The notes under the pieces are model-generated. The model ran no database searches. It saw nothing but the letters and a program-made list of their open reading frames with translations, and was not told where the DNA came from. Source: a virus (Duplodnaviria > Heunggongvirae > Uroviricota > Caudoviricetes). Taken from it: 23,088 bases of DNA. Made by a program: the position numbers and the translations under genes. The number at the start of each line of letters is the position of its first letter. Position 1 is the stretch's first letter. This document shows positions 1 to 20,679 of this stretch, piece by piece. The DNA is taken from IMG/VR virus record IMGVR_UViG_2563366797_000001. One strand, written 5' to 3'.

Positions 1-211
1 TTGAGAAGCGGTGTAAGTGAACTGCAGTTGCCATGTTTTACGGCAGTGAGAGCAGAGATAGCGCTGATGTCCGGCAGTGCTTTTGCCGTTACGCACCACC
101 CCGTCAGTAGCTGAACAGGAGGGACAGCTGATAGAAACAGAAGCCACTGGAGCACCTCAAAAACACCATCATACACTAAATCAGTAAGTTGGCAGCATCA
201 CCTATCACGGC

Positions 212-421
212 ATGCGAATTGAGCTTAAAGAACCAAATGGTAAAGCCCCGACGAAAGAGCAGATCGCCTGGATGCGCAGGCTTAGAGAGGAAGGTTACTA
301 CGTCGTTCTTGCGTATGGTGCAGAACAAGCGATAACCGCCATCCTGGAATACATAAGCCTTAAAAAGGGTGAGGCTATTGAGCATGTATTGAACGGCGAC
401 AAGTGGTTGTATGCTGCTTAA
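212..421 (+). CDS. VRR-NUC-like nuclease, C-terminal fragment (possible remnant)
   Basis: 69-aa ORF with ...YHGMRIELK...EQIAWMRRLREEGYYVV..., resembling the (D/E)xK C-terminal half of VRR-NUC domains. The same frame has a TAA at 185-187 and no upstream frame carries the expected N-terminal half, so it is probably truncated. Confidence 0.3.
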   Translation: MRIELKEPNGKAPTKEQIAWMRRLREEGYYVVLAYGAEQAITAILEYISLKKGEAIEHVLNGDKWLYAA

Positions 422-426
422 AATAA

Positions 427-443
427 TAAATTAATTAGTGCAT
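427..443 (-). promoter_or_regulatory. Degenerate C1 operator-like site (GCACTAAT core)
   Basis: Minus-strand reading ATGCACTAATTAATTTA; close to the Op99a-type variant at 18095-18111 but with about 3 mismatches to the ATTGCTCTAATAAATTT consensus. Confidence 0.3.
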
Positions 444-487
444 ATGTGCTCTTTGATATAGCGCACATTAACATCGGGAGAATAATC

Positions 488-643
488 GTGTCATTCAAGG
501 CTAATTATGAATCGCTGGCATCGATCATGCCGCGTAATGAACAGGAAGCAGATGCTGTAGTGGACCCGGTAATCGCTGAAATGAATGCTCGCCTGGAGGC
601 TGAATTTGCAGCTGAGAATGAACATACCACCCAGGGCGACTAG
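488..643 (+). CDS. Small hypothetical protein (GTG start)
   Basis: GTG at 488 preceded by GGGAG; about 51 aa in the frame of ORF 446..643. No recognisable motif. Confidence 0.2.
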   Translation: MSFKANYESLASIMPRNEQEADAVVDPVIAEMNARLEAEFAAENEHTTQGD

Positions 644-1247
644 GACTGTTTTTTGTGTCGGTAGCGGTCCGTCACTCACTCGTGAGGACTGTGCTGCTAT
701 AGAAAAAACTGGCTGTTCAATCATCGCGGTTAACAATTCCTGGCAGATGTTCGATGACATTTATGCCTTATACGCCGGTGATTTGTCATGGTGGAAGCAA
801 TACGGATCCACCATACCGGGAGGGAGATTCCGCAAAGTGACAGCCAACCTGGCGGCGGCGAAATCATTTTCGTTGGAGTACAGGCGATATTGTGGACCGG
901 CGGAAGGGGTAAATAGCGGCGCGCAGGCTATCAGTCTGGCTGCTGAATCAGGGGCTGAAGTAGTGGTATTAGTCGGCTATGACTGTTCTCTGCAAAACGG
1001 CCTTCATTGGCATGGCGCGCACCCTCAAGCCCTACGGAATCCAACGCAGGTGTCTATTTCAAAATGGCAACAGCAGTTCCTGGATACCCGCAAAAAACAC
1101 GCAGATTTACATATTTTGAATGCAAGTAGGAGCAGTGCAATTCAATGTTTCCCAAGAATAAATTTAGAGGCAGTGATCGCGTTATTATCGTCGGCAGTGG
1201 CCCAAGCGCCGCAAACTTTGTTGCGCCGCGCGGAGTGCCGATTATAG
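618..1247 (+). CDS. Sialyltransferase/Maf-like (GT42/DUF115-like) putative glycosyltransferase, paralog 1
   Basis: VFCVGSGPSL...IIAVNNS...NSGAQAISLAAESGAEVVVLVGYDCS...HWHG, matching the recalled Cst-II/Maf pattern (GNGPSL loop, second strand, SG...A...LG...L.G.D, catalytic His region). Start could be 585 or 618. Confidence 0.5.
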   Translation: MNIPPRATRTVFCVGSGPSLTREDCAAIEKTGCSIIAVNNSWQMFDDIYALYAGDLSWWKQYGSTIPGGRFRKVTANLAAAKSFSLEYRRYCGPAEGVNSGAQAISLAAESGAEVVVLVGYDCSLQNGLHWHGAHPQALRNPTQVSISKWQQQFLDTRKKHADLHILNASRSSAIQCFPRINLEAVIALLSSAVAQAPQTLLRRAECRL

Positions 1248-1771
1248 CGGTCAATGGGGCCATCGACTGGCTTAACCGCGCTTCTTATTTTTTCACCCTT
1301 GATCCATCGCCAGACAATATGCGGCGCGTTGGTCGTGGCCGCCGTCGCCGTGGTGTTTGTTATTGCATGGCACTACCCGATGTTAAAGAACGTGAAGTCA
1401 GAGATGGCGTTCTGTGCTTCCGTCGTGTGGCTGAGCGCGGCACGGAGCCAAAAAATACGAATTCTCCCGAGTGGTGGGCGTGGCGCTGGTCCGCACATTT
1501 CGGCCTTTGCGAAGATGAGAATGAAATTGCCAGCGGCAATAGTGCATATGGTGCTCTGAACCTGGCTTTCCATATCGGATTCAAACATGTCGCCCTGGTG
1601 GGCGTTGACGCTACACAAGAACCACGCGTTCACTCCGGCGGCACGCCAAAAAATCTAAGTCACCTGCCTTTGTTATTCCAGTCTGCGCGTGAACAGATTG
1701 ACGTTGTTTCATGCGGGAAAATGGGAGGTATTCCGCAGATGACTCTTAAAGAATGGCTGAAGAATACATGA
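1145..1771 (+). CDS. Sialyltransferase/Maf-like (GT42/DUF115-like) putative glycosyltransferase, paralog 2
   Basis: [13 protein letters not shown]...IIAVNGA...[28 protein letters not shown]...VHSGGTPKN; same motif order as paralog 1. AGGAG lies upstream of the ATG; overlaps the paralog 1 tail by about 100 nt. Confidence 0.5.
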
Positions 1772-2445
1772 TGGCACCCACAATTTATCACCGTATCGAC
1801 GGTACCAAATACAGGAATGTCTGGGTTGTTGGTGATCTGCATGGTTGCTACACCAGACTGATGTCCGAACTCCATCGTGTGGATTTTGACCCGGCGCAGG
1901 ATTTACTGATATCGGTCGGCGACCTTATCGATCGCGGTACTGAAAATGTCGAATGTCTGGAACTATTGCAGATGCCCTGGTTCAGGGCAGTGATGGGGAA
2001 CCATGAGCGGCTGATGATTGATGCGTTAAGTCCAGATGGCAACGTGAATAACTGGCTAATGAATGGCGGTCAATGGTTCTTCATGCTGGACGCTGATCAG
2101 GAAATATTAGCCAGGGCGCTGGTGGAGTTGGTAAGACGACTGCCCTATATCATTGAGTTGAACACCGGGCAAGAAACTATCGTTATAGCCCATGCCGACT
2201 ATCCGGATAATGAATATCAATTCGGTAAGGAGGTGCCGCTTTTCAACGTTGTCTGGGCGCGCGAGCGTATCAGTGATTCGATGGATGATATTGGTGGCGA
2301 AATTTCTGGCGCAGATCGTTTTATCTTTGGTCACACTCCGGTGAAAAGCCCGAAGACATTCTGGAATCAGCATTATATCGACACAGGTGCCGTATTTTGC
2401 GGAAACCTGACATTGATGAAAGTGAAAGGTGATGGTGCAGCATGA
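1768..2445 (+). CDS. Ser/Thr protein phosphatase, lambda PPase / PrpA-PrpB family (metallophosphoesterase)
   Basis: Near full-length match to recalled lambda phosphatase: [44 protein letters not shown] at 1768 overlaps the upstream stop (ATGA); 1753 is an alternative start. Confidence 0.85.
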
Positions 2446-3143
2446 AGATTGCTTTAGTTCTTCGCTCTGGTGGTGACTATAACGCTTCCGATGTGCAGTG
2501 GCTGGTTAATCAACTGCCAAAAGGCTATGAAATTATTTGCCTGACAGACCTGAAGCGTTTACATGTACCTGGCGTCAAAGTTGTCCCATTGATCAACCAG
2601 TGGCAAAAGTGCCGTGGCTGGTGGGCGAAAATCGAGTTGTTCCGACCGGATATAACCGATGATCTGTTCTATCTGGATTTGGACACGGTTATTGCCGGTG
2701 ATATACGCCCAATCCTAGAGAATCCACCAACCAGCTTCACCATGCTTAGGGATTTTTACCATCCACAATATCGTGGCAGCGGTGCCCTGTGGATACCAAA
2801 TAGTGTAAAAGCGCATATCTGGAGTGCATTCTGGCAAGATCCGGAAGGTTGGATTGCTCGTTGTGTTACTACTGAATGCTGGGGTGAGCAGGGGTTTTTG
2901 CGGAAGGTTATGGGTGATGATACACCAGCATTTCAGGATCTGTATCCGGGATGGTTTGTAAGTTACAAGGCCGATGTTGTGGAACCTGGTTCGAAATATG
3001 CGAGCGCGCGTTACTCCAGGGGGAATGGGGCATTACCAAAAGACTGCCGAATAATCTTTTTCCACGGCAAACCGCGACCTCGCGAAGTGTCAGAGGATTG
3101 GCTTCCCCTTATCAGCTCATTTTTTGAGCGAGAATCAGAATAA
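2442..3143 (+). CDS. GT-A fold (GT8-like) nucleotide-sugar glycosyltransferase
   Basis: N-terminal strand [12 protein letters not shown], DxD-type motif [14 protein letters not shown]-terminal FFHGKPRP resembling the GT8 H.G..KPW motif. ATGA start-stop overlap with the phosphatase gene. Confidence 0.5.
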
Positions 3144-3144
3144 T

Positions 3145-3161
3145 ATTGCTCTAATAATTCC
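3145..3161 (+). promoter_or_regulatory. C1 operator-like site
   Basis: ATTGCTCTAATAATTCC, two bases after the glycosyltransferase stop codon. Confidence 0.55.
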
Positions 3162-3169
3162 ATATTTTT

Positions 3170-3199
3170 AAAACGTGATGTACACTCATCACGTTTTTT
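3170..3199 (+). terminator. Intrinsic terminator hairpin (bidirectional-looking) between two inverted operator sites
   Basis: AAAACGTGATG-TACACT-CATCACGTTTT followed by T-run; preceded by T/A run on the other side. Confidence 0.55.
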
Positions 3200-3210
3200 A
3201 TTAGAGCAAT
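3194..3210 (-). promoter_or_regulatory. C1 operator-like site (inverted relative to 3145-3161)
   Basis: Minus-strand reading ATTGCTCTAATAAAAAA. Confidence 0.55.
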
Positions 3211-3224
3211 CTATAAGGTGCACT

Positions 3225-3443
3225 ATGTGGCCATTCCGACGGAAATATCACTACTGGCTGATCGCCTTTGTTACGCCGACCGGCGGTATCAGGCATGTCA
3301 TCACCAGGTATCGCAACAAGAGACTCACCTTAGCCAGAATTTTACAGGCTGCCATAGGTGAGGGACTGGATACAAATTGCGTAGTCCTTCCACCTTCATA
3401 CTTAGGAAAAATGACCGAAGCACAAGCTAATACGGAACTTTGA
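3225..3443 (+). CDS. Hypothetical protein (72 aa)
   Basis: ATG with AAGGTG about 7 nt upstream, directly after the operator site. No recognisable motif. Confidence 0.3.
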   Translation: MWPFRRKYHYWLIAFVTPTGGIRHVITRYRNKRLTLARILQAAIGEGLDTNCVVLPPSYLGKMTEAQANTEL

Positions 3444-3602
3444 AATGAGCACTTCAGCACAAAACCAATCAATCGAAAATGTATCTAGAGGAAACTGCGG
3501 CAAGAAGACTTCTCGATGTTTGCTATGCACGTAGCGATGCATGGGAAAAAGAGAACGGCGGCACTATTTACGTTCGCTGATAGTTACAGTGTCACTTTTA
3601 AT

Positions 3603-3633
3603 GCTGGTGGAGTGCTCCCACCAGCATTTTTTT
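3603..3633 (+). terminator. Rho-independent terminator
   Basis: GCTGGTGG-AGTGCTC-CCACCAGC followed by ATTTTTTT. Confidence 0.55.
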
Positions 3634-3652
3634 CGTCCAATGAGGAGGGCAT

Positions 3653-4159
3653 TTGAGTATTTTCAATAAACACGCACACCAGGAACGTCCGTACATCGTC
3701 ATAGTAGATATTGATGGGACGATATCAGAGGCAACGGAAGACAGGCTGCATTTACTTCCACCACCTGGCAAAGGTGCATTAACAGAGCACTGGAACGAGT
3801 TTAACCTTGCCTGTGACACTGATGCTCCCATCACTCCAGTTATTGATATGGTGCGCCAGTTGTCCGGCATTTACACCCTCTGGTTTGTAACCGGGCGCTG
3901 TGAGATAGCCAGGGATAAAACACGAGCCTGGTTGCGTAAGCACGTAACAAATGGGGCTGAGCCTTTGCTATCTATGCGTCCTGCCACCGATGACAGAAAT
4001 GACGGTCCAGCAAAGATTGATCTCCTGAAGAAAATTGGTCTAAGTAAAATTGCGTTCGCGCTGGAAGATAAGATTGAAGTGGCGCGTGTTTTCAGGAGTC
4101 ACGGCGTACTTACGTTAATGGTCAGGGAGTATGAAAACGCGCTTCTCCATCAACAATAA
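3653..4159 (+). CDS. HAD-superfamily phosphatase-like protein
   Basis: TTG start with strong GAGGAGGG Shine-Dalgarno. HAD motif I VIVDIDGTI (DxDGT), motif II LWFVTGR, acidic motif FALEDK. Confidence 0.5.
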   Translation: MSIFNKHAHQERPYIVIVDIDGTISEATEDRLHLLPPPGKGALTEHWNEFNLACDTDAPITPVIDMVRQLSGIYTLWFVTGRCEIARDKTRAWLRKHVTNGAEPLLSMRPATDDRNDGPAKIDLLKKIGLSKIAFALEDKIEVARVFRSHGVLTLMVREYENALLHQQ

Positions 4160-4175
4160 TTGCTCTAATAAATCT
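4159..4175 (+). promoter_or_regulatory. C1 operator site with promoter-like TTGATT immediately downstream
   Basis: ATTGCTCTAATAAATCT followed by CTTGATTTTT; the same operator-TTGATTTTT arrangement recurs at 18642. Confidence 0.6.
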
Positions 4176-4257
4176 TGATTTTTAAAACAGAGAAAGTGAA
4201 AATAAAAACATGCCGCAAGGCGCGGCATGTATCCAATCAATCACAGGAGCTGAAAAT

Positions 4258-4344
4258 ATGAACACGGCATTCAAAATCATTATGGCCGCGATCTATTTCT
4301 GGCTGTTCTCTATCACTTTTGGCAGCATTGTCGCGCATGGGTAA
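4258..4344 (+). CDS. Small hydrophobic peptide (28 aa), possible membrane peptide or toxin-like
   Basis: MNTAFKIIMAAIYFWLFSITFGSIVAHG; AGGAG 8 nt upstream; downstream of the 4159 operator and a hairpin (4210-4231). Too short for the ORF track. Confidence 0.3.
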   Translation: MNTAFKIIMAAIYFWLFSITFGSIVAHG

Positions 4345-4423
4345 GGGGAGTATATTAGCCATTTGGAACCCCACGGTCTCTTGCGGGTTTAATTAAGAAC
4401 CCGCAAGAAAAATACGAATTGGG

Positions 4424-7400
4424 CTATATTTTTCCGCCTACGCCTTTAAACTTCTCAATAAACGAGACGATTTTCTGGAAAACTGCCTGTTTTTTCGTTT
4501 TATATTGCGGATTCAACGGACTAAGTTTTGGTAATGTTTCGTTTAATTCTGTGCCATTTTCGGTGGCGTATTCGCGTTTTAAAGACGTGCGAATATAGCG
4601 TTTTGCTGCATCTTCATTGAGATTTTCTTCTTTTATCAATGCTTCTGCTTCACGTTGCTGTTCGCGTTGAGCAAACGTAAAGAATGCCTCAATGATACTG
4701 GCTTTGTCTGGTAAATCATCCAGGTTCGTTTGCTGAATAAAATCGACCACCAGGCCCTCTTTCGCCCGGTTCCCCAGGCTTGAACGAATTAAGCGTTTGA
4801 CCTCTTCGATCATTTCGCCCTTGCCTTTATTTTGTCTATTGTGTTCGAAAATCAGTCCAAGGATATAATCCAGGTTTATTTCCTGAGACTTCAGCAAATC
4901 GACCTCAAAAACTACGTCATCCCAGTCAGTGGTTGATTTCTCTTTTTTCTCAGCTTCTTTCTCACGGCGCTGCCAGTCGCGAATATCGTTATAGGCAGAA
5001 CGATAATCCTGAATCTTGCGATCAGCAGGGAGACGAATTGTTTGCAATTCAGCGAACTTTTCATTATCCACATAATGTTCTGCTTTGAATTTTTCTACCG
5101 CAACAGGATCGCTAAGATCGATTTGTTGCAGGGCTTTTAGCGTGGCAAATTCATCATAGTTTTGCAGGATGTTCTCGGCACGCAGGTATTCGCCAAACAG
5201 TTTAACGAAGTCTTTCTTCTCTTTTTCACTTTCAATACTGGTAGGGTCAGGGAACCGTTGTTCCAGTTCTGAAACTACTGTCATGAAGCCGCGTTTAGCT
5301 TCACCAGTGGCAGCATCAGTAAAGCCTTCCATATACTCTGCATAACTCTTTTCTAAAACCACATTTTTGGTATTTTTGTCACCAAACAGCGTTATGGCAT
5401 CAATGGTTGAGCGTTCCAGATCCCGGAACGTGACAATATTACCGAAGGTTTTAGTCGCGTCATAAATGCGGTTGGTGCGGGAGAATGCCTGCATCAGGCC
5501 GTGAAAACGCAAGTTTTTATCGACGAATAGCGTGTTTAATGTTGGAGCATCGAAGCCGGTTAAAAACATCCCCACGACAATTAGCAGATCGATATCCTGA
5601 TTTTTAACCCGCTGGGCTAAATCACGATAGTAGTTCTGAAAACCGTTACTGTCGGTGCTAAAGTTAGTTTTAAAATGGCTGTTATATTCACGAATTGCAG
5701 CGTCCAGAAACTCTTTAGCACTGCTGTCCATTGCGCTGGTATCAAAAGTTTCATCGGAAATTTCACCAATGGCATTTTGTTCTTCATTGGCGGCAAAGGA
5801 GAAGATTGTCGCAATACGCAGCGGTTTATAGGTAGCCGATTTATTAGCGGCTTCTTCTTGTAACCGTTTAAACGTCGCATAATAGGCTTTCGCGGCATCC
5901 ACGCTGCTCACTGCCAACATAGCATTAAAACCTTTTGAGCCAGGGAAGGTACGGTGGGTTTTCTGGCGGAAATTATTCAGAATATATTGCGTGATTTCCT
6001 GAATACGCATGGGATGAAGAAACGCCTGCTGATTTTCAGCCGCACTCAGTTTTTTCTCGTCAGTTTCTGTCTCTAAAGACTTAAACTGTGGCCGCACATC
6101 GTTGTAGTCCACCTTGAATTTGAGCACTTTTTCGTCACGAATCGCATCGGTAATTACATACGAATGCAATTCACGACCAAATACGCTGGCGGTTGTTTCT
6201 GAGCCTAAGGCGTTTTCCGGGAAAATAGGGGTGCCGGTAAAACCAAACTGATAATAGCGTTTGAATTTCTTCTTCAGGTTTTTCTGCGCTTCTCCAAACT
6301 GGCTGCGGTGGCATTCATCAAATATAAACACCACTTGCTGATTATATACAGGCAGATCGCTTTCTGCTTTCATCAGGTTATTGAGTTTCTGAATAGTAGT
6401 GACGATAATTTTGTTATCGTCCTTATCCAGATTTCGTTTAAGACCTGCGGTATTTTCCGAGCCGTTGACGCTGTCTGGCGAAAAACGCTGATATTCCTTC
6501 ATGGTCTGGTAATCGAGGTCTTTCCTGTCGACCACAAAGAAGACTTTATCAATAAAGTCCAGCTCTGTTGCCAGACGCGCGGCTTTAAAGCTGGTGAGGG
6601 TTTTACCAGAACCGGTAGTGTGCCAGATATACCCACCGCTTTCCGGTTTTGACCAGTTCTTCGCTGTAAAGGAACTCTTAATTTTCCACAGAATGCGCTC
6701 GGTGGCGGCAATCTGGTACGGTCGCATTACCAGTAGTGTCTGACTGCTGTCAAAAACGCTGTAGTTCACCAGAACATTAAGCAGAGTATGTTTCTGGAAA
6801 AAGGTAGCGGTAAAGTCTTTGAGGTCTTTAATCAGTGTATTGTCTGATTTAGCCCAGTTCATGGTGAAGTCAAAACTGTTTTTATCGCGCTTTGTGGTGT
6901 TGGCAAAATAACGGGTATCAGTGCCGTTGGAAATGACGAACAGCTGCAGATACTTAAACAGGGAATTTTCGCTGTTAAAACTCTCTTTACTGTAACGATG
7001 TATCTGGTTGAAAGCCTCACGAATCGCCACCCCGCGTTTTTTTAGTTCGATTTGCACCAGCGGTAAACCATTAACCAGGATCGTGACGTCATAACGGTTA
7101 GCATGAGAACCCGTCTGTTCAAACTGCTGGATAATCTGCACCTTATTGCGCATGAGATTCTTTTTATCTATCAAATAGATGTTCTCAAGACGCTCGTCAT
7201 CAAAAATAAAGTCGCAAATATAGTCGATATGGATTTTACGGGTCTTATCCAGAATGCCATCGCTCGGGTTATCCAGATACTGCTCCGTGAAACGCCGCCA
7301 CTCGCTGTCATTAAACACCACACCATTGAGGTTCTGAAGCTGTTCCCGAACATTGGCTAGCATCGCCGACTGTGATTTTACGGATATAAATTCATAGCCC

Positions 7401-7540
7401 TGATTCCGCAGGTCCTGAATCAGTTCACGTTCCAGGTCCGATTCGCTCTGGTAGCTGTCGCCTGTTTGCTCAGCTTTGATGTACTTATCAAGGACGATAA
7501 AGTTATTGGATTCAGCAATGGTGTGTGTTTGATGAGTCAT
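4424..7540 (-). CDS. hsdR: Type I restriction enzyme R subunit (HsdR)
   Basis: 1038 aa; Walker [18 protein letters not shown]-box-like [11 protein letters not shown], helicase motifs; last gene of the M-S-R operon. Confidence 0.95.
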
Positions 7541-7661: not shown

Positions 7662-8288
7662 TTAATTACTGGCTGTTTCAGGTTTTGGGAAACTGAACAG
7701 TAAATCACGATAGTACTCGTATTGTTTCTGGCGCAACTCGATTTCACGCGGGAGACCTTCGGTGATGGAGTTGGTCAGTGTGTCGAATTTGTCCAGAATT
7801 CGCACGATTTCAGACTGGATGGCAAGGGATTTTTCCGGATTATCCGGGCAGGGGATTGGGATTTTTTTTTGAGAATAATTACTAATCCATTGGCGTTTAT
7901 GGTCTCCCTCTGCGAATTCACTTGGTAATGTATTGAGCCAATAGTAAACATATTTCAGTAAGGTTTTATTATCATCACATGATGTAACCATTTTCATGGC
8001 CGATGATTTTGCCTTAAAGTCAAAATCCACCCATTTATTAGCGGTGGTGAAATCATCAAAAATTATTACAGGTGCCTTTGATGCCTGATAAATACCATGA
8101 GTCTCATTTGTGTATCCAAGAATAAATGTTTTTCCGGCAGTAAGAACCGGTATGGTATATGTGTCGTGATAATCTTTTGCTTTTACCAAATACTTTGTTG
8201 GCTGTTCATATTTGGTTATTTCCCCCAATGGCAACCACTCAACTTCAACCCCATCCAGCAATTTTTCCAGATAACTCATCTCGCTCAT
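7662..8288 (-). CDS. hsdS: Type I specificity subunit (HsdS), short single-TRD form
   Basis: 208 aa; start overlaps the hsdM stop by 4 nt (coupling); position between hsdM and hsdR; length is consistent with one target-recognition domain plus a conserved region. Confidence 0.8.
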
Positions 8289-9847: not shown

Positions 9848-9986
9848 CCACTTATTTCAGGCTTATGTAATTGGCGGTGATTCTACAGCAACTTGGATGC
9901 TTTAGCAGTTCGGACATTAGGCTACGAATGACCTGCCTAGAGGTTTGTTAAGCCGCAAAGTGCTGGTGCTTTATGTCTGTGAAGTT

Positions 9987-10017
9987 TATAATTGTGTACA
10001 CATAACGAGTACACGAG
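9987..10017 (+). promoter_or_regulatory. phd-doc promoter/operator region
   Basis: TATAAT at 9987-9992 followed by perfect palindrome TGTGTACACA (9993-10002) and GAGTACACGAG directly upstream of the phd ATG. Confidence 0.55.
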
Positions 10018-10023
10018 GTATTT

Positions 10024-10245
10024 ATGCAATCCATTAACTTCCGTACCGCGCGGGGCAACCTTTCTGAAGTGCTCAACAATGTTGAGGCCGGGGAAGAGGT
10101 TGAAATCACCCGCAGAGGCCGTGAGCCAGCAGTAATTGTCAGCAAGGCTACTTTTGAAGCCTACAAAAAAGCGGCGCTGGATGCTGAATTTGCATCCCTG
10201 TTTGACACCCTGGACTCCACCAACAAGGAACTGGTTAACCGATAA
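10024..10245 (+). CDS. phd: Phd antitoxin
   Basis: 73 aa, [39 protein letters not shown]..., matches recalled P1 Phd; stop overlaps the doc start. Confidence 0.95.
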
Positions 10246-10625
10246 TGAGGCATATATCACCGGAAGAACTTATTGCGCTTCATGATGCGAATATAAACCG
10301 CTACGGCGGCCTGCCGGGAATGTCTGATCCGGGTAGGGCAGAGGCCATTATCGGGAGAGTTCAGGCCAGAGTTGCCTACGAAGAGATCACCGACCTTTTC
10401 GAAGTCTCCGCCACCTACCTGGTGGCTACGGCGAGAGGGCATATATTCAATGATGCCAATAAGCGTACCGCGCTAAACAGTGCGCTGCTATTTCTACGCC
10501 GTAACGGGGTGCAGGTATTTGATTCACCTGAACTGGCAGACCTTACTGTAGGCGCTGCGACTGGCGAGATATCTGTATCTTCTGTCGCCGACACGTTACG
10601 TAGATTGTATGGTTCTGCGGAGTAG
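10245..10625 (+). CDS. doc: Doc toxin (Fic-fold kinase)
   Basis: 126 aa, [17 protein letters not shown]...[23 protein letters not shown], matches recalled P1 Doc. Confidence 0.95.
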
Positions 10626-10629
10626 ATTA

Positions 10630-10809
10630 ATGGCACGTAAATACAACAAATTGTCCCGTGAAGCGTTAAAGATGCTTCTTGATGGCGTGAGTCGCCGCGA
10701 GGTAAAGCAATACCTGGCTGGTAAGCAAATTGGTGCCAGGACCGCTATTGCTGTGTTATGCCGTCAGGAAATGGTTGTGCTTAAACAGAGAATGCCGGGC
10801 AGCATATAA
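10630..10809 (+). CDS. Small post-doc protein (PdcA-position), hypothetical
   Basis: ATG 5 nt after the doc stop with GGAG upstream; 59 aa MARKYNKLSREALKMLLDGVSRREVKQYLAG. Confidence 0.4.
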   Translation: MARKYNKLSREALKMLLDGVSRREVKQYLAGKQIGARTAIAVLCRQEMVVLKQRMPGSI

Positions 10810-10836
10810 AGCCCAATCAGTGATTAAAGGTGTGAT

Positions 10837-11880
10837 GTGAAAGCCGTAATTACTCCCTTTGTACAGAAAGAACTTGGCCTCGCCACGTTCAAAGTGGATC
10901 AGGAGGTCAGAAAGCTGGTGGAGGCTGGCCGTAAATTTATTATGGAGCCGGTGCCGCGTGAGTTAATCGAGCACATGGACGACGGCCTCGTTGCTTCCGA
11001 GCAAACTATAGCAACAAATGAGGCGTTGCAGCCGTTTTTTAACAGCGATGAACTGTTTCGCCGTATTGGTGGAATTGACGCGCTGGTGGCGTGGTTGCGC
11101 AGGAAAGAGGGGCAATGCCAGGCCGCAGATCGTAGCTGGTGTGACAACCATATTGTCCACGCTGAACGAGACAATAGCGCGGTGTTGTTGTGCTGGCATC
11201 ACGATAACCATTACCGGATGCGTGGTTTTAATGAGCTGAAAGAAACGCTGCACAATAATCGCGTTAACTGGATACTGGATGTCGCCCGTCAGGAAATGGG
11301 CCTTTCAGATAGCCATGATTTAAGTATTCAGGAGCTGTGCTGGTGGGCTTTCATGCGTAACATGATGCACCTGATGCCGGAAGAAGTCTGCCGCATATCA
11401 ATAAATAAGATGAAGGCTGCTCCGCAGGATAGCGGACCTCTGAAAGAGGCGGATATTCGCCCGTATGACGATCGCGCTACAGCATATGTTCAGATGATGG
11501 AAGAACGCGCCGCGCCGATGCGTGCAAAAGTATGCCCTGTGGATGTTGACTCCGACCCAGGTATGGCGCATTTCAAAATACCAAAACTTCAATCGCTAAA
11601 ATTGCCCGAGTACATGGACTTTGTGGCTTCCCGTCCATGCTGTGGCTGTGGAGCTGCGGGAGCTGGCGCTCACATTACGCCTTATATCGTTCGTCATAGT
11701 CGATTATGCGCGCATGACATTTACGCAATTCCTCTGTGCCAGTCATGCCAGCGTGATATTGAGCGTGACCGCGATAATTGGGAGAAGACGCACGGTAGGC
11801 TGGCGATGCATCAACGATTGTTCTTTGATTACGCGCTTGGAGTCGGCGCTATCACAAGTTACTCGTCGAGCGTTAGATAA
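10837..11880 (+). CDS. Hypothetical Cys-rich protein (PdcB-position)
   Basis: 347 aa, GTG start with AAGGTG upstream; C-terminal cysteine cluster (CCGCGAAG...CAHD...CQSCQRD) suggests metal binding. Family not recognised. Confidence 0.5.
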
Positions 11881-11881
11881 A

Positions 11882-11898
11882 ATTGCTCTAATGTATTG
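11882..11898 (+). promoter_or_regulatory. C1 operator site upstream of the lpa-position gene
   Basis: ATTGCTCTAATGTATTG, directly after the stop of the preceding gene. Confidence 0.6.
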
Positions 11899-11968
11899 CT
11901 ATTTCTTTAATCGATGGTATTATATTCCACGTTGATTAGTTGACATGGGCTAATCAGTAGGTGACAGG

Positions 11969-12283
11969 ATGTTACTTAACTGGCAGGGACGCCACTTCAT
12001 GGAAATAAATCACTCACGAATAACATCGTACGAGATTGCGAATTACATGATCCGCACTAAATCTCTTCTATCAGCGAAAGAACTCGCAGCAATTCTTGAA
12101 AAGGAATACCCGCATCTGGATGTCGATAAGCGCGATGTTTATCTGCGCTTAAAAGCTATCGCTGTGTCTAAGTATTCGTCTGTTTTGATTGATGACAGTA
12201 CGAACGAAAGCGTGAAAATAACTGGTCAGTGCTGGAAGCAGCTGAATTCATCGAGGCGCATGGCGGGAAAGTGCCGCCCCTGA
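11969..12283 (+). CDS. Possible late-promoter-activator (Lpa-position) protein
   Basis: 104-aa ORF downstream of a C1 operator; assignment by position only. Confidence 0.3.
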
Positions 12284-12600
12284 TGCTGGAGCAAATCAAA
12301 GCCGATCTGCGTGCTCCTAAGACCAATACCGATGATGAGGAAAGGCAAACAGCCGTCGGTGGCCCTTCTCTTGAAGATCTGGACAAAGTTGCGCGAGAAC
12401 GGGCCGCCAACCGCCGCGCCGATGCCGCATTGTGGATTGAGCAGCGTAGGGAAGAAATCGCCGATATCGTTGATACAGGCGGTTATGGAGATGTTGATAC
12501 TGAAGGTGTATCAAACGACCCATGGCTGGAACAAGACCTGGACGAAGACGAGGAGGAAGACGAAGAAGTTACCCGCAAGCTATACGGGGATGATGATTAA
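12229..12600 (+). CDS. pacA: PacA-like terminase small-subunit C-terminal remnant
   Basis: 123 aa from GTG, acidic C-terminus ([11 protein letters not shown]); stop overlaps the pacB ATG (TAATG). Frame closed upstream at 12193. Far shorter than the recalled ~45-kDa P1 PacA. Confidence 0.4.
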
Positions 12601-12989
12601 TGGCCAGAAGTTGCGTAACGGATCCACGTTGGCGCGAGCTGGTGGCGCTATATCGTTATGACTGGATTGCGGCCGCTGATGTTTTGTTCGGCAAAACACC
12701 TACCTGGCAGCAGGATCTGATTATTGAGTCTGTGCAGGAACAGGGTAGCAAGACATCTGTTTCGTCTGGTCACGGTACCGGGAAATCAGACATGACTTCT
12801 ATCATGATCATGTTGTTCATAATCATGTATCCCGGTGCCCGCGCCATTATCGTTGCGAACAAAATTCAGCAGGTAATGACCGGTATATTCAAGTACATCA
12901 AGATAAACTGGGCTACTGCCACCAGCCGTTTTCCATGGCTTGCTGATTATTTTGTTCTGACAGAAACCGCTTTCTATGAGGTTACTGGT
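12600..12989 (+). pseudogene. pacB: pacB (terminase large subunit), N-terminal part, interrupted by IS2
   Basis: Walker [10 protein letters not shown]; reading frame runs into the IS2 end at 12990 and resumes in frame at 14326. Confidence 0.8.
12985..12989. repeat. IS2 target-site duplication, left copy (CTGGT)
   Basis: CTGGT immediately outside the IS2 terminus; identical copy at 14321-14325. Confidence 0.85.
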
Positions 12990-13000
12990 TGGATTTGCCC

Positions 13001-13906
13001 CTATATTTCCAGACACCTGTTATCACTTAACCCATTACTGGCTTGCTGCCGTAGATATTCCCGTGGCGAGCGATAACCCAGTGCACTATGCGGATGCCAT
13101 TCGTTATAATGCTCGAACGCCTCTGCAAGGTTCTTTGCTGCCGTTAACCCGTCTGGTTTGGGCATGACACTGATGTAGTCACGCTTTATCGTTTTCACGA
13201 AGCTCTCTGCTATGCCGTTACTCTCCGGACTCCGCACCGCCGTGCTCTTCGGTTCAAGCCCCAACATCCGGGCAAACTGCCGTGTTTCATTAGCCCGGTA
13301 GCATGAACCATTATCCGTCAGCCACTCTACTGGAGACGCCGGAAGCTCGTTGCCGAAGCGGCGTTCCACCGCTCCCAGCATGACGTCCTGTACTGTTTCA
13401 CTGTTGAAGCCGCCCGTAGTGACCGCCCAGTGCAGTGCCTCACGGTCACAGCAGTCCAGCGCGAACGTGACTCGCAGTTTTTCTCCGTTATCACAGCGGA
13501 ACTCGAACCCGTCAGAGCACCATCGCTGATTACTTTCTTTCACAGCCACTCTGCCTGTATGTGCCCGTTTCGATGGCGGTACAGCAGGTTTTCGCTCAAG
13601 CAACAGCGCATTCTGGCGCATGATCCGGTAAACACGTTTGGCATTGATCGCAGGCATACCATCAAGTTCTGCCTGTCTGCGAAGCAGCGCCCATACCCGA
13701 CGATAACCATACGTGGGCAGCTCTCCGATAACATGGTGTATACGGAGAAGCACATCCGTATCATCAGTGTGACGACTGCGGCGGCCATCCATCCAGTCAT
13801 CGGTTCGTCTGAGAATGACGTGCAACTGCGCACGCGACACCCGGAGACAACGGCTGACTAAGCTTACTCCCCATCCCCGGGCAATAAGGGCGCGTGCGCT
13901 ATCCAC
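13001..13906 (-). CDS. insD: IS2 transposase OrfB (InsD)
   Basis: 301 aa, DDE integrase-type sequence (...WCSDGFEF...LTDNGSCY...). Confidence 0.9.
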
Positions 13907-14229
13907 TTTTTTGCCCGTCCATATTCAACGGCTTCTTTGAGGAGTTCATTTTCCATCGTTTTCTTGCCGAGCAGGCGCTGGAGTTCTTTAATCTGCTTCA
14001 TGGCGGCAGCAAGTTCAGAGGCAGGAACAACCTGTTCTCCGGCGGCGACAGCAGTAAGACTTCCTTCCTGGTATTGCTTACGCCAGAGAAATAACTGGCT
14101 GGCTGCTACACCATGTTGCCGGGCAACGAGGGAGACCGTCATCCCCGGTTCAAAACTCTGCTGAACAATTGCGATCTTTTCCTGTGTGGTACGCCGTCTG
14201 CGTTTCTCCGGTCCTAAGACATCAATCAT
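13864..14229 (-). CDS. insC: IS2 OrfA (InsC)
   Basis: [41 protein letters not shown]...; helix-turn-helix N-terminus; start taken at MIDVL (121 aa). Confidence 0.9.
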
Positions 14230-14320
14230 CTGCTCTCCAATGACTAGTCTAAAAACTAGTATTAAGACTATCACTTAAATAAGTGATACTGGTTGTCTGG
14301 AGATTCAGGGGGCCAGTCTA

Positions 14321-14325
14321 CTGGT
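14321..14325. repeat. IS2 target-site duplication, right copy (CTGGT)
   Basis: Identical to 12985-12989. Confidence 0.85.
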
Positions 14326-15420
14326 AAAGGTGTATGGACTGTAGTACCGAAGGGCTTTCGTCTGGGAAGTGAAGAAGTTCTCGCCGGTGAACACGCAGAT
14401 CATCTTCTGTATATTATCGATGAAGCCTCCGGTGTCAGTGATAGAGCTTTCGGTATCATCACCGGTGCTCTTACCGGACAGGATAACCGCATCTTATTAC
14501 TGTCACAGCCTACACGCCCAAGCGGCTATTTCTACGATACTCACCATAAACTGGCCAAGCGTCCTGGTAACCCAGATGGCGTTTATACGGCGATCACGCT
14601 TAACAGTGAGGAATCACCGCTGGTAACGTCAGAATTTATCAAAATGAAGCTGGCGGAGTACGGCGGGCGTGATAACCCTATGTACATGATTAAGGTACGC
14701 GGCCTATTCCCTAAATTACAGGACGGCTTCCTTCTTGGACGTGATGAGGTTGAACGTGCGACGCGGCGGAAAGTCAAGATTGCCAAAGGATGGGGCTGGC
14801 TTGCATGTGTGGACGTTGCTGGTGGTACAGGACGGGATAAGTCCTTTATCAATATCATGATGGTGTCCGGCCAGCGAAATAAACGCCGTGTAATCAACTA
14901 TCGAATGCTGGAATACACAGACGTTACAGAAACGCAGCTTGCCGCCAAAATTTTCGCAGAATGTAATCCTGAGCGATTCCCCAATATCACCATAGCGATA
15001 GACGGCGATGGCCTGGGTAAAGCAACGGCGGATCTGATGTACGAGTATTATGGTATTACCGTACAGCGTATACGCTGGGGTAAAAAGATGCATAGCCGTG
15101 AAGATAAGAGCCTGTACTTTGATAAACGTGCTTATGCCAACGTTCAAGCCGCAGAGGCCGTAAAATCTGGTCGTATGAGACTGGATAAGGGTAATGAAAC
15201 TATTGAGGAAGCGTCGAAAATCCCTGTAGGGATTAACTCCGCAGGTCAATGGAAGGTGATGAGTAAGGAGGATATGAAGAAAAAACTCAACCTGCACTCA
15301 CCAGACCATTGGGATACATATTGTTTCGCTATGCTGGCGGATTATGTTCCCCAGGACGAAGTGCTTAGCGTCGAAGACGAAGCGCAGGTTGATGAAGCTC
15401 TGGCATGGCTTAATGAATAA
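14326..15420 (+). pseudogene. pacB: pacB (terminase large subunit), C-terminal part
   Basis: 365 codons in frame with the N-terminal fragment once IS2 and one duplication copy are removed; reconstructed length about 495 aa. Confidence 0.8.
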
Positions 15421-15423
15421 ACA

Positions 15424-15440
15424 CTTGCTCTAATAAATTG
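15424..15440 (+). promoter_or_regulatory. C1 operator-like site heading the antirepressor module
   Basis: CTTGCTCTAATAAATTG, followed by TTGACT and a possible -10. Confidence 0.55.
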
Positions 15441-15572
15441 TGTTTTTTGACTGCCGATGTTACATTGAACCTGACCTCTTGCGCCTTGAGGCATTTTCGG
15501 TTTATGCTTATCAGGCACCTCATTAAAACGGGTGCCGGGATTGAGACCCCGGATAATGTCAAAGGCGACACA

Positions 15573-15594
15573 GACGCCGAAAGCGTCTTTTTTT
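15573..15594 (+). terminator. Intrinsic terminator-like hairpin inside the antirepressor leader
   Basis: GACGC-CGAAA-GCGTC followed by T7; flanked by complementary GACACA/TGTGTC. Confidence 0.5.
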
Positions 15595-15779
15595 GTGTCA
15601 TGCCATCGCACAGCCATACGTAGCGTTTAGCTCCGAAATCAATGGTAGTGCTGGCTGGGCTGCCGAAAGGCAGGCCGGTTCCCTTTGACGCCGGTAGTCT
15701 CAACCCAGTCAGTGCTACCGCCATTGAGATTGAGACCTCACGCGGTAGCTCCTTAACTTAGTCAAAGGAGGCTGCCATT

Positions 15780-16001
15780 ATGGCTACTGTCCCTACCCCA
15801 ATTCATCCTGAATTTATCTGGCGCTTTTACTCCTGCCAAAAACGTCACTATCACTTCGTTATTGCACCGACAGAAGATGAGGCCCATTCTCAGCTTCCTG
15901 ACGCCCCATGTATTTTCTCTGCCCGTTTTTCCACTGATTCACGCAATTCTCTCAGTTACTGGTGCCTCCCTGTTAACGCTTCTGCTCAGGAGGGACTATG
16001 A
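15780..16001 (+). CDS. Small protein translationally coupled to the antirepressor gene (Icd-like position)
   Basis: 73 aa; strong AAGGAGG Shine-Dalgarno; stop overlaps the downstream ATG (ATGA). Confidence 0.4.
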   Translation: MATVPTPIHPEFIWRFYSCQKRHYHFVIAPTEDEAHSQLPDAPCIFSARFSTDSRNSLSYWCLPVNASAQEGL

Positions 16002-17116
16002 GAACGTCATTAGTTACCCGTGAAGAGATGATCGAGGCAATTGAACAGCACACTGCCTGTATCAGTACTAGGGATATACCGGGCGTTATTGCCAACTACT
16101 TCATGATCACCAAACAACTTTACCGGAGAAAGGACAAGAACGCAGTTCACCGCATCCTGCTGTCTGATATCCGCGAATACCTGCTCGAACAGGGGCATCT
16201 GAATTACGCAACCGCCGCAGCCGAATCACGCAAGGAGGCACACAGAATGAAAGCAACTAACGTTAAATCAGAAAAAATTCATGCACCTTCAGTTCAGGAA
16301 TCGGAGCTGGTGGTTGTTCAGAATCAGTCTGATGAAATTCCCGTTCTGGAATGGCAGGGAGTGCGTGTAGTGACAACCGAGACTCTTGCTAGAGGGTATG
16401 GGACAGAAACAATCCGTATTCGCCAAAATCATCATGAGAACAAAGTACGCTTTGTTGAAGGGAAGCACTTTTTCAAAGTTGAAGGAGAATCATTGCGCGA
16501 GTTGAAGCACAGAGTAGCTTTAAACTACTCTGTAAAAATTGCTCGCAATGTTCGCTCACTCACCCTCTGGACAGAACGCGGCGCAGCCCGCCACGCTAAA
16601 ATGCTCGAAACCGATCAGGCATGGGCATTCTTTGAAAAACTGGAAGACAGCTACTTCCGACAAAAAGAACAGCAACCGATCGCAATCCCCCAGACGCTTC
16701 CTGAAGCCCTACGCCTGGCTGCCGAACTGGCTGAACAAAAGCAACTTCTGGAACAGAAAGCCCACCAGCTAAATCAGCAGCTGGTGGCCGCCGCTCCTAA
16801 AGTCGATTTTGCCGACCGGGTATCAGTAGCTAAAGGGATCCTGATTGGGAATTTTGCAAAGGTTGTTGGACTTAAGCAAAACGCGCTGTTTGTCTGGTTA
16901 CGGGAGAACGGCATCCTGATAGCGTCCGGTGGACGTAAAAATGTGCCGTTCCAGCAGTACATCAACGCGGGGTATTTCACGGTGAAAGAAGTGGTGCTGG
17001 ATGATGAAGATGGCTACCAGATACGGTTGACGCCTCAATTAACGGGTAAAGGCCAGCAGTGGTTGACGCGTAAACTGCTCGATGCTGGCTTGTTAAAACC
17101 GGTGGCGGCTGAATAA
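15998..17116 (+). CDS. Antirepressor-like protein (N-terminal ORF6N domain, C-terminal KilAC/Ant domain)
   Basis: 372 aa; N-terminal ...WQGVRVVTTETLARGYGTETIRIRQNHHENKVRFVEGKHFF... (ORF6N pattern), C-terminal ...FVWLRENGILI...YINAGYF... (Ant C-terminal pattern); convergent with c1. Confidence 0.7.
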   Translation: MRTSLVTREEMIEAIEQHTACISTRDIPGVIANYFMITKQLYRRKDKNAVHRILLSDIREYLLEQGHLNYATAAAESRKEAHRMKATNVKSEKIHAPSVQESELVVVQNQSDEIPVLEWQGVRVVTTETLARGYGTETIRIRQNHHENKVRFVEGKHFFKVEGESLRELKHRVALNYSVKIARNVRSLTLWTERGAARHAKMLETDQAWAFFEKLEDSYFRQKEQQPIAIPQTLPEALRLAAELAEQKQLLEQKAHQLNQQLVAAAPKVDFADRVSVAKGILIGNFAKVVGLKQNALFVWLRENGILIASGGRKNVPFQQYINAGYFTVKEVVLDDEDGYQIRLTPQLTGKGQQWLTRKLLDAGLLKPVAAE

Positions 17117-17148: not shown

Positions 17149-18000
17149 TTATTGCGCGCTTTCGGGGTTGTCGTTTACTGGCTGCCCCTTCTTGGTTTTA
17201 CGGCTGCGCGTAACTGATGCGGCTGACTTAACCTTTTTCTCTTCGCGAGTGATGGCAATTTGTTTTTTTACATTTTCAATATCTGCCAGGCGATATATTT
17301 TTGCTTGCGGCCAGCGGTCGCAGATGATCGGTTCTATGGAGTCATAAAGGCTAAATTTTGCTTTTTCGAATTCACCGTTGATGATAATTCCATCACGGAG
17401 AGTTTCATCGCAGATAAACACGCCACACAGTGGCACATGGTAACTAACTGATTTACCATCATTGTAGTTAGGGCTACTGGAAATGTAGTGGACGCGCAGC
17501 ATTGTTTCGCTAAAGCCGTGTACGCGCATACGGAATTTTTCATCCTCCGGGTACTGCTTCATTAGCTCTTTTGTTGCTTCCAGGTTCTCTATGTATTTCG
17601 CACTGTGCTCATTGATCCCCGCGCTTTTTTGGATGCGAATGTCCTTATCAATCAGATGAATAATGCGGCCAGCGGTCATGTTGACGCTGTTCACAGCTTC
17701 TGTCTGATAAGTTGTAACCTTACGCACACCGCGAAGGATGTTAGGCACTGGATATAAAATAGTCTTTGGGATATTGAGGTCTGGGTACTGTTCCAGTTCC
17801 CGCGCCATTAAAGTCCATTTATCAATTTCAGCCTGAATGCTGTCAGTTTCTTTGAACGGTAGAACGACAACCGGGCGTACAGGACGACCGTCGCTGGCTG
17901 TATCAACGTGTTGGGCGCGTGCAACAGCTTTTTTTAGAAAGAGATCCCTGAAGCTGACGAACTCCTGGTACAGTTGTTCGCCGTAGACATAATTTATCAT
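17149..18000 (-). CDS. c1: C1 repressor of lysis (primary immunity repressor)
   Basis: 283 aa, MINYVYGEQLYQEFVSFRDLFLKKAVARAQHV..., matches recalled P1 C1; GGAGGAGG Shine-Dalgarno. Confidence 0.95.
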   Translation of the reverse strand: MINYVYGEQLYQEFVSFRDLFLKKAVARAQHVDTASDGRPVRPVVVLPFKETDSIQAEIDKWTLMARELEQYPDLNIPKTILYPVPNILRGVRKVTTYQTEAVNSVNMTAGRIIHLIDKDIRIQKSAGINEHSAKYIENLEATKELMKQYPEDEKFRMRVHGFSETMLRVHYISSSPNYNDGKSVSYHVPLCGVFICDETLRDGIIINGEFEKAKFSLYDSIEPIICDRWPQAKIYRLADIENVKKQIAITREEKKVKSAASVTRSRKTKKGQPVNDNPESAQ

Positions 18001-18827: not shown

Positions 18828-19153
18828 AAGGTTGCGCTACGTAAAATCTGCGAAATGTTGGCAGTGTTAGTACTCCAGATTTCGCGTAGCGCACTTAGCA
18901 CCACCAATCAATCAGAGGTGAAAAATGGGATATTCAGCTGCTAAAGTGTCCACTCATCTTGAGCTTGAGAAAAACCGTGGTTACTGGCGGGCAAAAGGGT
19001 TTGATCGTGATAGTTGCCAACTGTCATTATCGCGCGGTGAAGAGAAAATAGAACGCACGCGCGGTCGCTGGCGTTTCTATGACGAGAACCATAAACAGGT
19101 AAAGGCAGAGCCGATCCTGTACACTTTACTTAAAACCATTATCTGAGTGTTAA

Positions 19154-20235: not shown

Positions 20236-20547
20236 ATGAGAAAGGATTTCAACATCGACGGAAAATATGTAGTGCTGTCTGTAAGCACTAATATTCTGTC
20301 GCCATCTGTCATTGTCACCGTAAAGTTGAGCGATAGGATGCCTGATATCGACTCGATATCTGTTGCGTTCCCCGTTAAAAGCATGCGGAGTGCTGAACAT
20401 TTTGTGATGAATGCAACGGAGGAGGAAGCGCGGCGCGGGCTTACTAGAGTGATGGGGGAATTTGGCGAACTCCTGGGTAAGGTAAACAATGCCCTTTCAA
20501 TCAGTTCAGCAAGGTCCAAAGCGTTAACAGCTTCCATGATGAAATAA
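20236..20547 (+). CDS. Hypothetical protein (103 aa) downstream of an operator
   Basis: ATG with GGTGG upstream; stop immediately precedes an A-tract and hairpin. Confidence 0.4.
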   Translation: MRKDFNIDGKYVVLSVSTNILSPSVIVTVKLSDRMPDIDSISVAFPVKSMRSAEHFVMNATEEEARRGLTRVMGEFGELLGKVNNALSISSARSKALTASMMK

Positions 20548-20572
20548 AAAAAAGCCTGGCAAGGAGCCAGGC
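20546..20572 (-). terminator. Rho-independent terminator oriented for minus-strand transcripts
   Basis: On the minus strand GCCTGGC-TCCTT-GCCAGGC followed by T8; plus-strand side lacks a T-tract. Confidence 0.5.
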
Positions 20573-20679
20573 TGCACAAAAGAGCGGGTTTGTATTCCGC
20601 ATCCAATCAATCAAGAAGGAGTATAGCACACAGGTACTGAAGTGAAAAAATGTGATTCGCGAGAAACAAAATATCTACC

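Follow-up and report, generated by a model that had tools for sequence, protein, structure and literature searches.

A candidate overlooked gene for a membrane micro-protein at the head of the C1-controlled Op88 unit of P1-type phage-plasmids

Does the 28-codon open reading frame (ORF) that follows a C1 operator in P1-like phage-plasmids encode a protein, and if so, of what kind? We examined this question in the window, the whole 23,088-nucleotide stretch of viral DNA in IMG/VR record IMGVR_UViG_2563366797_000001 (Caudoviricetes), which by sequence comparison reads as a degenerate, mosaic P1-like phage-plasmid. A first-pass annotation made from the letters of the window had marked positions 4159-4423 as a C1-controlled micro-ORF for a hydrophobic peptide, set between two hairpins, and had likened the layout to type I toxin or small membrane-peptide loci.

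We put at about even the chance that 4258-4344 holds a genuine small gene that is translated and forms the first cistron, so far overlooked, of the C1-repressed Op88 early unit of P1-type phage-plasmids. P1 is among the best-studied phages, its phage-plasmid relatives are common carriers of resistance and defence genes, and the locus occurs in about 10% of complete Escherichia coli genomes, so an unannotated early gene would be worth adding to the map.

The 28-codon ORF and its control region

For comparison, we assembled 82 related loci from IMG/VR, GenBank, and species genomes (83 in counts of cargo types). The reading frame and its translation start comprise the following features.

4245-4249, + strand: Shine-Dalgarno sequence AGGAG, 8 nucleotides (nt) upstream of the ATG, with no variant in the 82 loci
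4258-4344, + strand: 28-codon ORF with a TAA stop at 4342-4344, encoding MNTAFKIIMAAIYFWLFSITFGSIVAHG, a predicted single-pass membrane peptide
4210-4257, + strand: in-frame upstream extension (44-residue form), probably not coding

The same ORF lies at 84392-84478 in P1. Its peptide has a grand average of hydropathy (GRAVY) of 1.29 and a best 19-residue Kyte-Doolittle window of 2.08, above the usual cut-off of 1.6, and by composition it amounts to approximately one transmembrane helix. Compared with all 148 ATG-initiated ORFs of 22-40 codons in the six frames of the window, it ranks first by 19-residue hydrophobicity and third by overall GRAVY, which bears out the earlier description of the peptide as nearly all hydrophobic. 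The micro-ORF is also one of only two ORFs in this set that are preceded by a Shine-Dalgarno sequence.

Existing annotations of this frame disagree. In the records of P1 and P7, the interval from pap to pmgT carries no annotated gene, whereas a 44-residue product is annotated in SJ46, phi456, and some PGAP records and the 28-residue product in one GenBank genome; the expectation that standard annotation would miss the ORF is therefore correct for P1 and P7 and incorrect for the others. The 44-residue "membrane protein" of SJ46 (YP_009293555.1) and the PGAP entry WP_024191728.1 use the same frame and share the same C-terminal 28 residues, but both models start at the ATG at 4210. This ATG lies inside the stem of the first hairpin and lacks a Shine-Dalgarno sequence, and the extension is broken in 13 of the 82 loci, by a stop codon (C4216T) in 11 and a frameshift in two, while the 28-codon ORF stays intact. 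Because the extension carries these lesions and begins within a stem that has no ribosome-binding site, the 44-residue model is very probably wrong, and the start is very probably 4258 if the frame is used at all. The gene model to adopt would accordingly be 28 residues long.

Upstream of the ORF, the window contains an operator, a promoter, a repeated motif, and a hairpin.

4159-4175, + strand: C1 repressor operator ATTGCTCTAATAAATCT, identical to the C1 consensus ATTGCTCTAATAAATTT (a 17-bp asymmetric site) at 16 of 17 positions
4175-4203, + strand: predicted sigma-70 promoter P1pmgT, as annotated in the P1 record, with −35 TTGATT at 4175-4180, a 17-nt spacer, and −10 GAAAAT at 4198-4203
4208-4216 and 4222-4230: arms of hairpin 1, 9 bp, −16.3 kcal/mol, z approximately −4.4 on both strands
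4198-4230, − strand: intrinsic terminator from a terminator scan, with the stem 4230-4208 (ACATGCCGCGCCTTGCGGCATGT) followed by TTTTTATTTT
4233-4242, + strand: C/A-rich motif CCAATCAATC, one of four exact copies in the window
3465-3474, 4233-4242, 18904-18913, and 20603-20612, + strand: the four copies of CCAATCAATC

The operator, proposed in the first-pass annotation, is base-for-base P1 OpmgT (formerly Op88; protein_bind feature at 84293-84309 of NC_005856) and occupies the same position. It overlaps the −35 TTGATT, and the window carries its own c1 gene. The hexamer that had been called promoter-like thus proves to be the −35 element of predicted P1pmgT, the top sigma-70-like match in 4120-4260 (position-weight-matrix score of 9.1). 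The P1 record names OpmgT/Op88 as a C1-controlled operator but gives its promoters only as "predicted". A transcript from P1pmgT is predicted to start at about 4210, at the foot of hairpin 1. In this region the window and P1 are the same DNA, with the operator, predicted promoters P1pmgT and P2pmgT, leader, and ORF 96-98% identical to P1 84263-84482.

Also as first described, CCAATCAATC, AGGAG, and the ORF follow one another between 4233 and 4344. The four exact copies of the motif all lie on the + strand, against approximately 0.04 expected, and in P1 these four are joined by a minus-strand copy in dbn. Three of the four accompany translation starts: one precedes the cra ATG by 11 nt, with AGGTG in the gap, one precedes the micro-ORF ATG by 15 nt, and one occupies codons 7-10 of pmgS. 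The fourth, between c8 and ref, lies ahead of an orphan AAGGAG. About 80 related loci keep the copies at the micro-ORF and in pmgS; the one at 4233-4242 does not vary in 81 of 82, save for a single 4-nt slippage deletion, and is mostly unpaired in predicted folds (probability unpaired of 0.6-0.77). A C/A-rich translation enhancer and a small RNA (sRNA) target are candidate roles for the motif. We also observed a hairpin preceded by an A run (aaaaaaaaGCCTGGCaaggaGCCAGGC) at about 20545-20572, after c8 and some 30 nt before the copy at 20603. On the minus strand this hairpin would form a terminator, and the order of inverted terminator, motif, and Shine-Dalgarno sequence is that seen at the micro-ORF.

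Hairpin 1 was anticipated in the first-pass annotation and is present with 9 bp; its reading as a + strand leader element did not survive, since it forms a canonical minus-strand terminator. Only on that strand does a U tract stand behind the stem, in the window as in P1, and hairpin 1 is best read as an opposite-strand terminator. On + strand RNA, it would be a stable hairpin at or near the 5′ end, followed by ATCCAATC with no U tract, and we rejected it as an attenuator or terminator of the sense transcript on that ground. Variants in hairpin 1 are few (4209, 4216, and 4229) and, as compensatory changes, do not discriminate between the strands. In the window, the terminator at 4230-4198 is the first on the minus strand downstream of the convergent gene hsdR in the terminator scan and is predicted to end the hsdR transcript. 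If hsdR RNA ends there, its predicted 3′ untranslated region (UTR) would be the full complement of the micro-ORF together with the ribosome-binding site of that ORF and the C/A-rich motif. The gene hsdR is the only credible source of minus-strand RNA in the window.

Conservation and the cargo downstream

The 28 codons are intact in 81 of the 82 related loci and the ATG is invariant, so the frame is conserved in related P1-like elements, a point on which the first-pass annotation had made its proposal depend. Copies of the conserved block are 95-100% identical. The peptide occurs in essentially every P1-like plasmid that has pap (approximately 594 full-length peptide matches versus 600 pap matches), and the full locus was found in 564 of 5426 complete E. 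coli genomes (~10%), with a partial locus in 885. Nucleotide diversity at codon positions 1, 2, and 3 is 0.0155, 0.0060, and 0.0296, respectively. The ratio of nonsynonymous to synonymous diversity (piN/piS) is 0.20 in frame versus 1.57 and 2.08 in the other two sense frames; for pap it is 0.11. We discarded the diversity comparison with pap as evidence, as pap diversity reflects two old allele classes confined to 3694-3952.

Searches beyond this group returned little. In tblastn searches of plasmids and phages, matches were confined to the P1 group, and a degenerate back-translated pattern run across 185,579 species genomes matched only two Escherichia contigs. The Pfam, NCBIfam, PHROG, and PADLOC profile libraries gave no match at E ≤ 1 except for one PHROG of unknown function (E = 0.09). 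A Citrobacter plasmid that is a distant P1 relative (Pap at 33% identity) does not keep synteny, which makes that comparison uninformative.

What follows the ORF differs between cargo types. In the type represented by P1, P7, and SJ46 (56 loci), the ORF continues into TAAGGGGGATGCATGAAAGG, its stop codon lies within the ribosome-binding site of pmgT or upf86.8, and the ATG of that gene is 9 nt away. Because the stop codon sits inside the pmgT ribosome-binding site, the micro-ORF reads as the unannotated first cistron of the P1 Op88 (OpmgT) early operon, pmgT-pmgU-pmgV. This operon position was invisible in the first-pass annotation because the downstream genes are replaced in the window. In other cargo types, an extended ORF overlaps the next gene. 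The genes behind the micro-ORF, from pmgT to humD, constitute "variable region 8" of P1-like plasmids (PMC9603915) and were non-essential in a CRISPR interference screen (PMC10695390). The ORF marks the exact left edge of this region, where cargo such as a type IC restriction system swaps in.

Such a swap characterizes the hsd type, which comprises 27 of 83 loci and includes the window. Here, the region from pmgT to humD is exchanged for an hsd cassette in the opposite orientation, so that the known genes of the P1 Op88 operon are lost and no + strand gene is left behind the micro-ORF; the ORF is intact in all 27.

4343-4348: boundary of the P1 block; P1 homology stops at 4348, and the joins of other cargo variants fall exactly behind GGGTA (4343|4344)
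from 4349, − strand: foreign type IC restriction-modification cassette with hsdR, a half-size hsdS, and hsdM
4349-4423, − strand: 3′ flank of the hsd cassette; the same flank lies beside hsdR in IncF plasmids
4379-4389 and 4398-4408: arms of hairpin 2, 11 bp, a terminator on neither strand (no U tract)
4424-7540, − strand: convergent hsdR, EcoR124-type (Pfam EcoR124_C, HSDR_N, and T1R_D3-like)

The second hairpin of the first-pass annotation exists, although at 4379-4408 rather than 4370-4397. We rejected it as part of the micro-ORF locus, as it sits in the hsd cassette, is absent from the P1 locus, and travels with hsdR into IncF plasmids. In these plasmids, the last 25 codons of the micro-ORF remain as an IS1-truncated remnant adjoining hsdR. 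According to the P1 GenBank record, exactly these P1 sequences flank the hsd loci of EcoDXXI and R124/3; Tyndall et al. 1997 (Mol Microbiol 23:729, in the reference list of PMC12707154) is the paper usually cited for this. These known type IC loci share with the window a micro-ORF beside the hsdR 3′ end and phd/doc on the other side; the P1 record and the citation in PMC12707154 describe the flanking homology but name no ORF there. The cassette has further features of its own. The hsdS gene (7662-8288, minus strand) encodes 208 residues with a single target-recognition domain, approximately half of the usual size; if this protein works as a dimer, the recognized site would be symmetric. It recalls a truncated hsdS reportedly described for EcoDXXI. 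No + strand terminator follows the micro-ORF in 4344-4700, so upon C1 derepression, the Op88 transcript should run antisense into hsdR. We speculate that expression of the restriction enzyme could thereby fall during lytic growth.

By following protein clusters whose C-termini are altered, we reached contigs with unrelated sequence behind the ORF. At six loci (L082, L095, L098, L099, L100, and L101), the conserved block stops at one bond, after GCxCATGGGTA. Four of the six are deletions relative to other cargo types, with right ends within pmgT or other cargo genes, each next to a TA that precedes it in the parent. The right end is preceded by TA in four of five rearrangements with a traceable parent; L099 lacks this TA microhomology and so fixes the position of the break at 4343|4344. 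Taken together, at least six independent rearrangements share a left end after GGGTA, and six of seven such rearrangements break within the stop codon and leave the 28 codons whole, counts that come from a way of finding rearranged variants that favours events touching the ORF. Breakpoints deeper in the cargo also occur. The shared breakpoint reflects either selection against truncated peptides, which would support function, or a mechanistic hot spot.

What the ORF may do

The most likely product, at roughly even confidence, is a 28-residue single-pass membrane micro-protein made early after C1 derepression, whose cistron doubles as a translational entry point for interchangeable cargo. In a lysogen, C1 bound at 4159-4175 would block the overlapping TTGATT/GAAAAT promoter; the match to the P1 operator is exact, and repression is presumed from the P1 annotation. 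Upon induction or infection, a transcript would begin at about 4210 with a 5′ stem-loop that may protect the mRNA, followed by the unpaired C/A-rich stretch and then AGGAG. Stems at 5′ ends usually stabilize mRNA, and we infer the same for this sense transcript. The peptide would insert in the inner membrane as one helix, with Lys6 cytoplasmic and a tail of 3-4 residues outside, and it may act in that membrane. Since the ribosome-binding site of pmgT or upf86.8, whichever comes next in P1 and P7, incorporates the micro-ORF stop codon (TAAGGGGGAtgcATG), the micro-ORF would also deliver ribosomes to the cargo that follows. In the window, it would be the only cistron left on the Op88 transcript, and its complement would be the predicted hsdR 3′ UTR ending at 4230-4198. 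Provided that the peptide is made, all cargo sets at this position would be expressed behind the micro-ORF.

An accessory early function appears more likely than that of an addiction toxin. Small inner-membrane proteins of E. coli include KdpF (29 residues), CydX (37 residues), and AcrZ (49 residues). The micro-ORF resembles such genes in the similar size of its product, the single transmembrane helix, its place as a short cistron at the edge of an operon, and the routine failure of annotation to record them. It differs in having no homology to KdpF, AcrZ, or CydX, and the context points to no partner complex, since the genes that follow can be exchanged for others. Annotation-missed small membrane proteins are a known class; what is probably new here is a member of that class missed in the annotation of P1. 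We found no mention of the micro-ORF in the literature searched.

Several observations weigh against a translated membrane peptide. In predicted folds, access to the Shine-Dalgarno sequence is only moderate (0.2-0.5 unpaired), and no transcript, ribosome-profiling, or proteomic evidence for the ORF was found in the literature searched. A search of 5.8 billion proteins found no relatives outside the P1 group, all matches having at least 83% identity, so the test of conservation over real evolutionary depth is not decisive. The in-frame piN/piS is nearly matched by one antisense frame (0.23). There are only 15 variants, and permutation that kept mutation type and frequency gave p = 0.13 by weight and p = 0.57 by synonymous count. 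Radical variants (G22D, L16Q, S18F, G28R, and A11E) circulate, and natural variants carry C-terminal extensions of 8-37 residues (P0008 and P0010-P0014), with P0011 present in 21 contigs. Foreign sequence replaces the ORF after codon 19 in two of 83 loci, and IS1 has inserted at the stop codon (P0008) and, in IncF plasmids, at codon 3.

Some of these observations would fit a translated leader whose peptide sequence is indifferent, which loads or couples ribosomes into the first cargo gene or keeps the leader free of Rho, and whose hydrophobicity is a by-product of T-rich second codon positions. We regard this as possible but distinctly unlikely. Tolerance of radical substitutions and C-terminal extensions, the non-significant selection test on the peptide, the stop codon embedded in the pmgT ribosome-binding site, and the abutting or overlapping next gene in other cargo types all speak for it. 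It is harder to reconcile with the hsd type, which has no downstream + strand gene to couple and yet keeps the ORF intact throughout, although this may reflect recent insertion, and with a full-length transmembrane helix that is the most extreme composition among the 148 short ORFs and the low in-frame piN/piS. Similarly doubtful, in our estimate, is that the block 4208-4344 is non-coding and the ORF fortuitous, with conservation due to roles as a terminator, an mRNA leader, and a recombination boundary and to the recent common ancestry of all P1-like elements. The terminator would then shield pap and pmgS from transcription leaving the variable cargo region. Among copies this similar, an open frame of 84 nt is unsurprising, and the want of distant homologues, the inconclusive selection tests, the functional-looking terminator on the opposite strand, and the recurrence of rearrangements at the end of the ORF are all consistent with this explanation. 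However, AGGAG at ideal spacing, a complete transmembrane helix, and a stop codon in the next ribosome-binding site would be an unlikely coincidence, the in-frame extension gathers stops and frameshifts while the 28 codons do not, and rearrangements spare all 28 codons.

A type I toxin-antitoxin system, the likeness drawn in the first-pass annotation, now looks improbable. The peptide would depolarize the membrane, and a minus-strand RNA ending at 4230-4198 (in the window, the hsdR 3′ UTR) would serve as the antitoxin. In common with the enterobacterial Ibs/Sib, ShoB/OhsC, Ldr/Rdl, TisB/IstR, and Hok/Sok systems, the locus has a peptide of fewer than 50 residues with a single transmembrane helix, the size and hydrophobicity being typical of Ibs-, ShoB-, Ldr-, or TisB-like toxins. 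As in those loci, the opposite strand has a suitably placed terminator, here just before the ribosome-binding site; any antisense transcript would therefore span the entire ORF together with its AUG and Shine-Dalgarno sequence. Covariance models gave sub-threshold minus-strand hits to GcvB (20 bits, E = 0.023) and isrK (12 bits, E = 5.5), which alone are not evidence; they reflect a G/U-rich stretch beside the terminator, and no Rfam family reached threshold. The locus departs from known type I systems in several respects. No toxin family was matched in Pfam, NCBIfam, PHROG, or PADLOC, and the antisense promoter that the comparison had called for did not appear in the window or P1: within the ORF and the next 200-350 nt, consensus and position-weight-matrix scans of the minus strand gave a best score of 5.7, below the shuffled mean of 7.5. 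The sense promoter would be silenced by C1 in the lysogen, which is not the usual wiring of addiction toxins and is ill-suited to post-segregational killing, and P1 already has phd/doc. IS1 truncations and insertions within the ORF are common and evidently harmless, and the mRNA is predicted to fold with no unusual stability (z = −1.1).

We give slightly less weight still to a proposal in which the stretch from the terminator to the micro-ORF is a two-strand regulatory node and, separately, the bond after GGGTA is a site-specific break-and-join point for cargo exchange. The minus-strand RNA ending at 4230-4198 may have the layout of an Hfq-type sRNA, with the G/U-rich GAUUGAUUGG beside the terminator hairpin and U tail. 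It may be the 3′ end of the hsdR message in the window and, in P1, may come from a promoter not yet recognized. Such an RNA may pair in cis with the start of the micro-ORF and in trans with the three other exact copies of CCAAUCAAUC, at the cra ribosome-binding site, pmgS codons 7-10, and the orphan AAGGAG between c8 and ref.

The rest of the window

Outside the locus, the window alternates between blocks collinear with P1 and foreign or rearranged sequence.

1-203: IS1 fragment, 99.5% identical to the IS1 of P1, abutting P1 sequence inside pmgM
203-3487: P1 79210-82494, from pmgM to the start of pmgS
3486-4348: P1 83620-84482
4349-9947: foreign block, formed by the hsd cassette
9948-12201: P1 87970-90223, with phd, doc, pdcA, pdcB, and the first part of lpa
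15424-15440: C1 operator of an extra immunity module
15515-15593: isrK-family Hfq-binding RNA, 60 bits
15638-15725: C4 antisense RNA, 75 bits
15998-17116: antirepressor of 372 residues with ORF6N and ANT domains
17149-18000: c1, followed by lox, cra, cre, c8, and ref

The junction between IS1 and pmgM is a further rearrangement of this element. Comparison with P1 shows that pmgS is short of approximately 1.1 kb (P1 82495-83619 deleted). Downstream of the lpa part lie diverged pac fragments and then the extra immunity-type module. With lpa cut after about 78 codons, most of pacA absent, and the leftover pac sequence only 84% identical to P1, the stretches 3445-3653 and 11969-15420 suggest an element that is defective as a phage. 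The extra module (15424-17116) is immunity-I-like and separates the pacB remnant from c1; the c4/ant module of P1 sits approximately 45 kb away, and its adjoining c1 here is unusual. Finally, an 11-bp terminator-like hairpin with a T run occurs on the + strand at 3600-3628, between the pmgS remnant and the start of pap, which suggests that pap is not simply co-transcribed with pmgR and pmgS.

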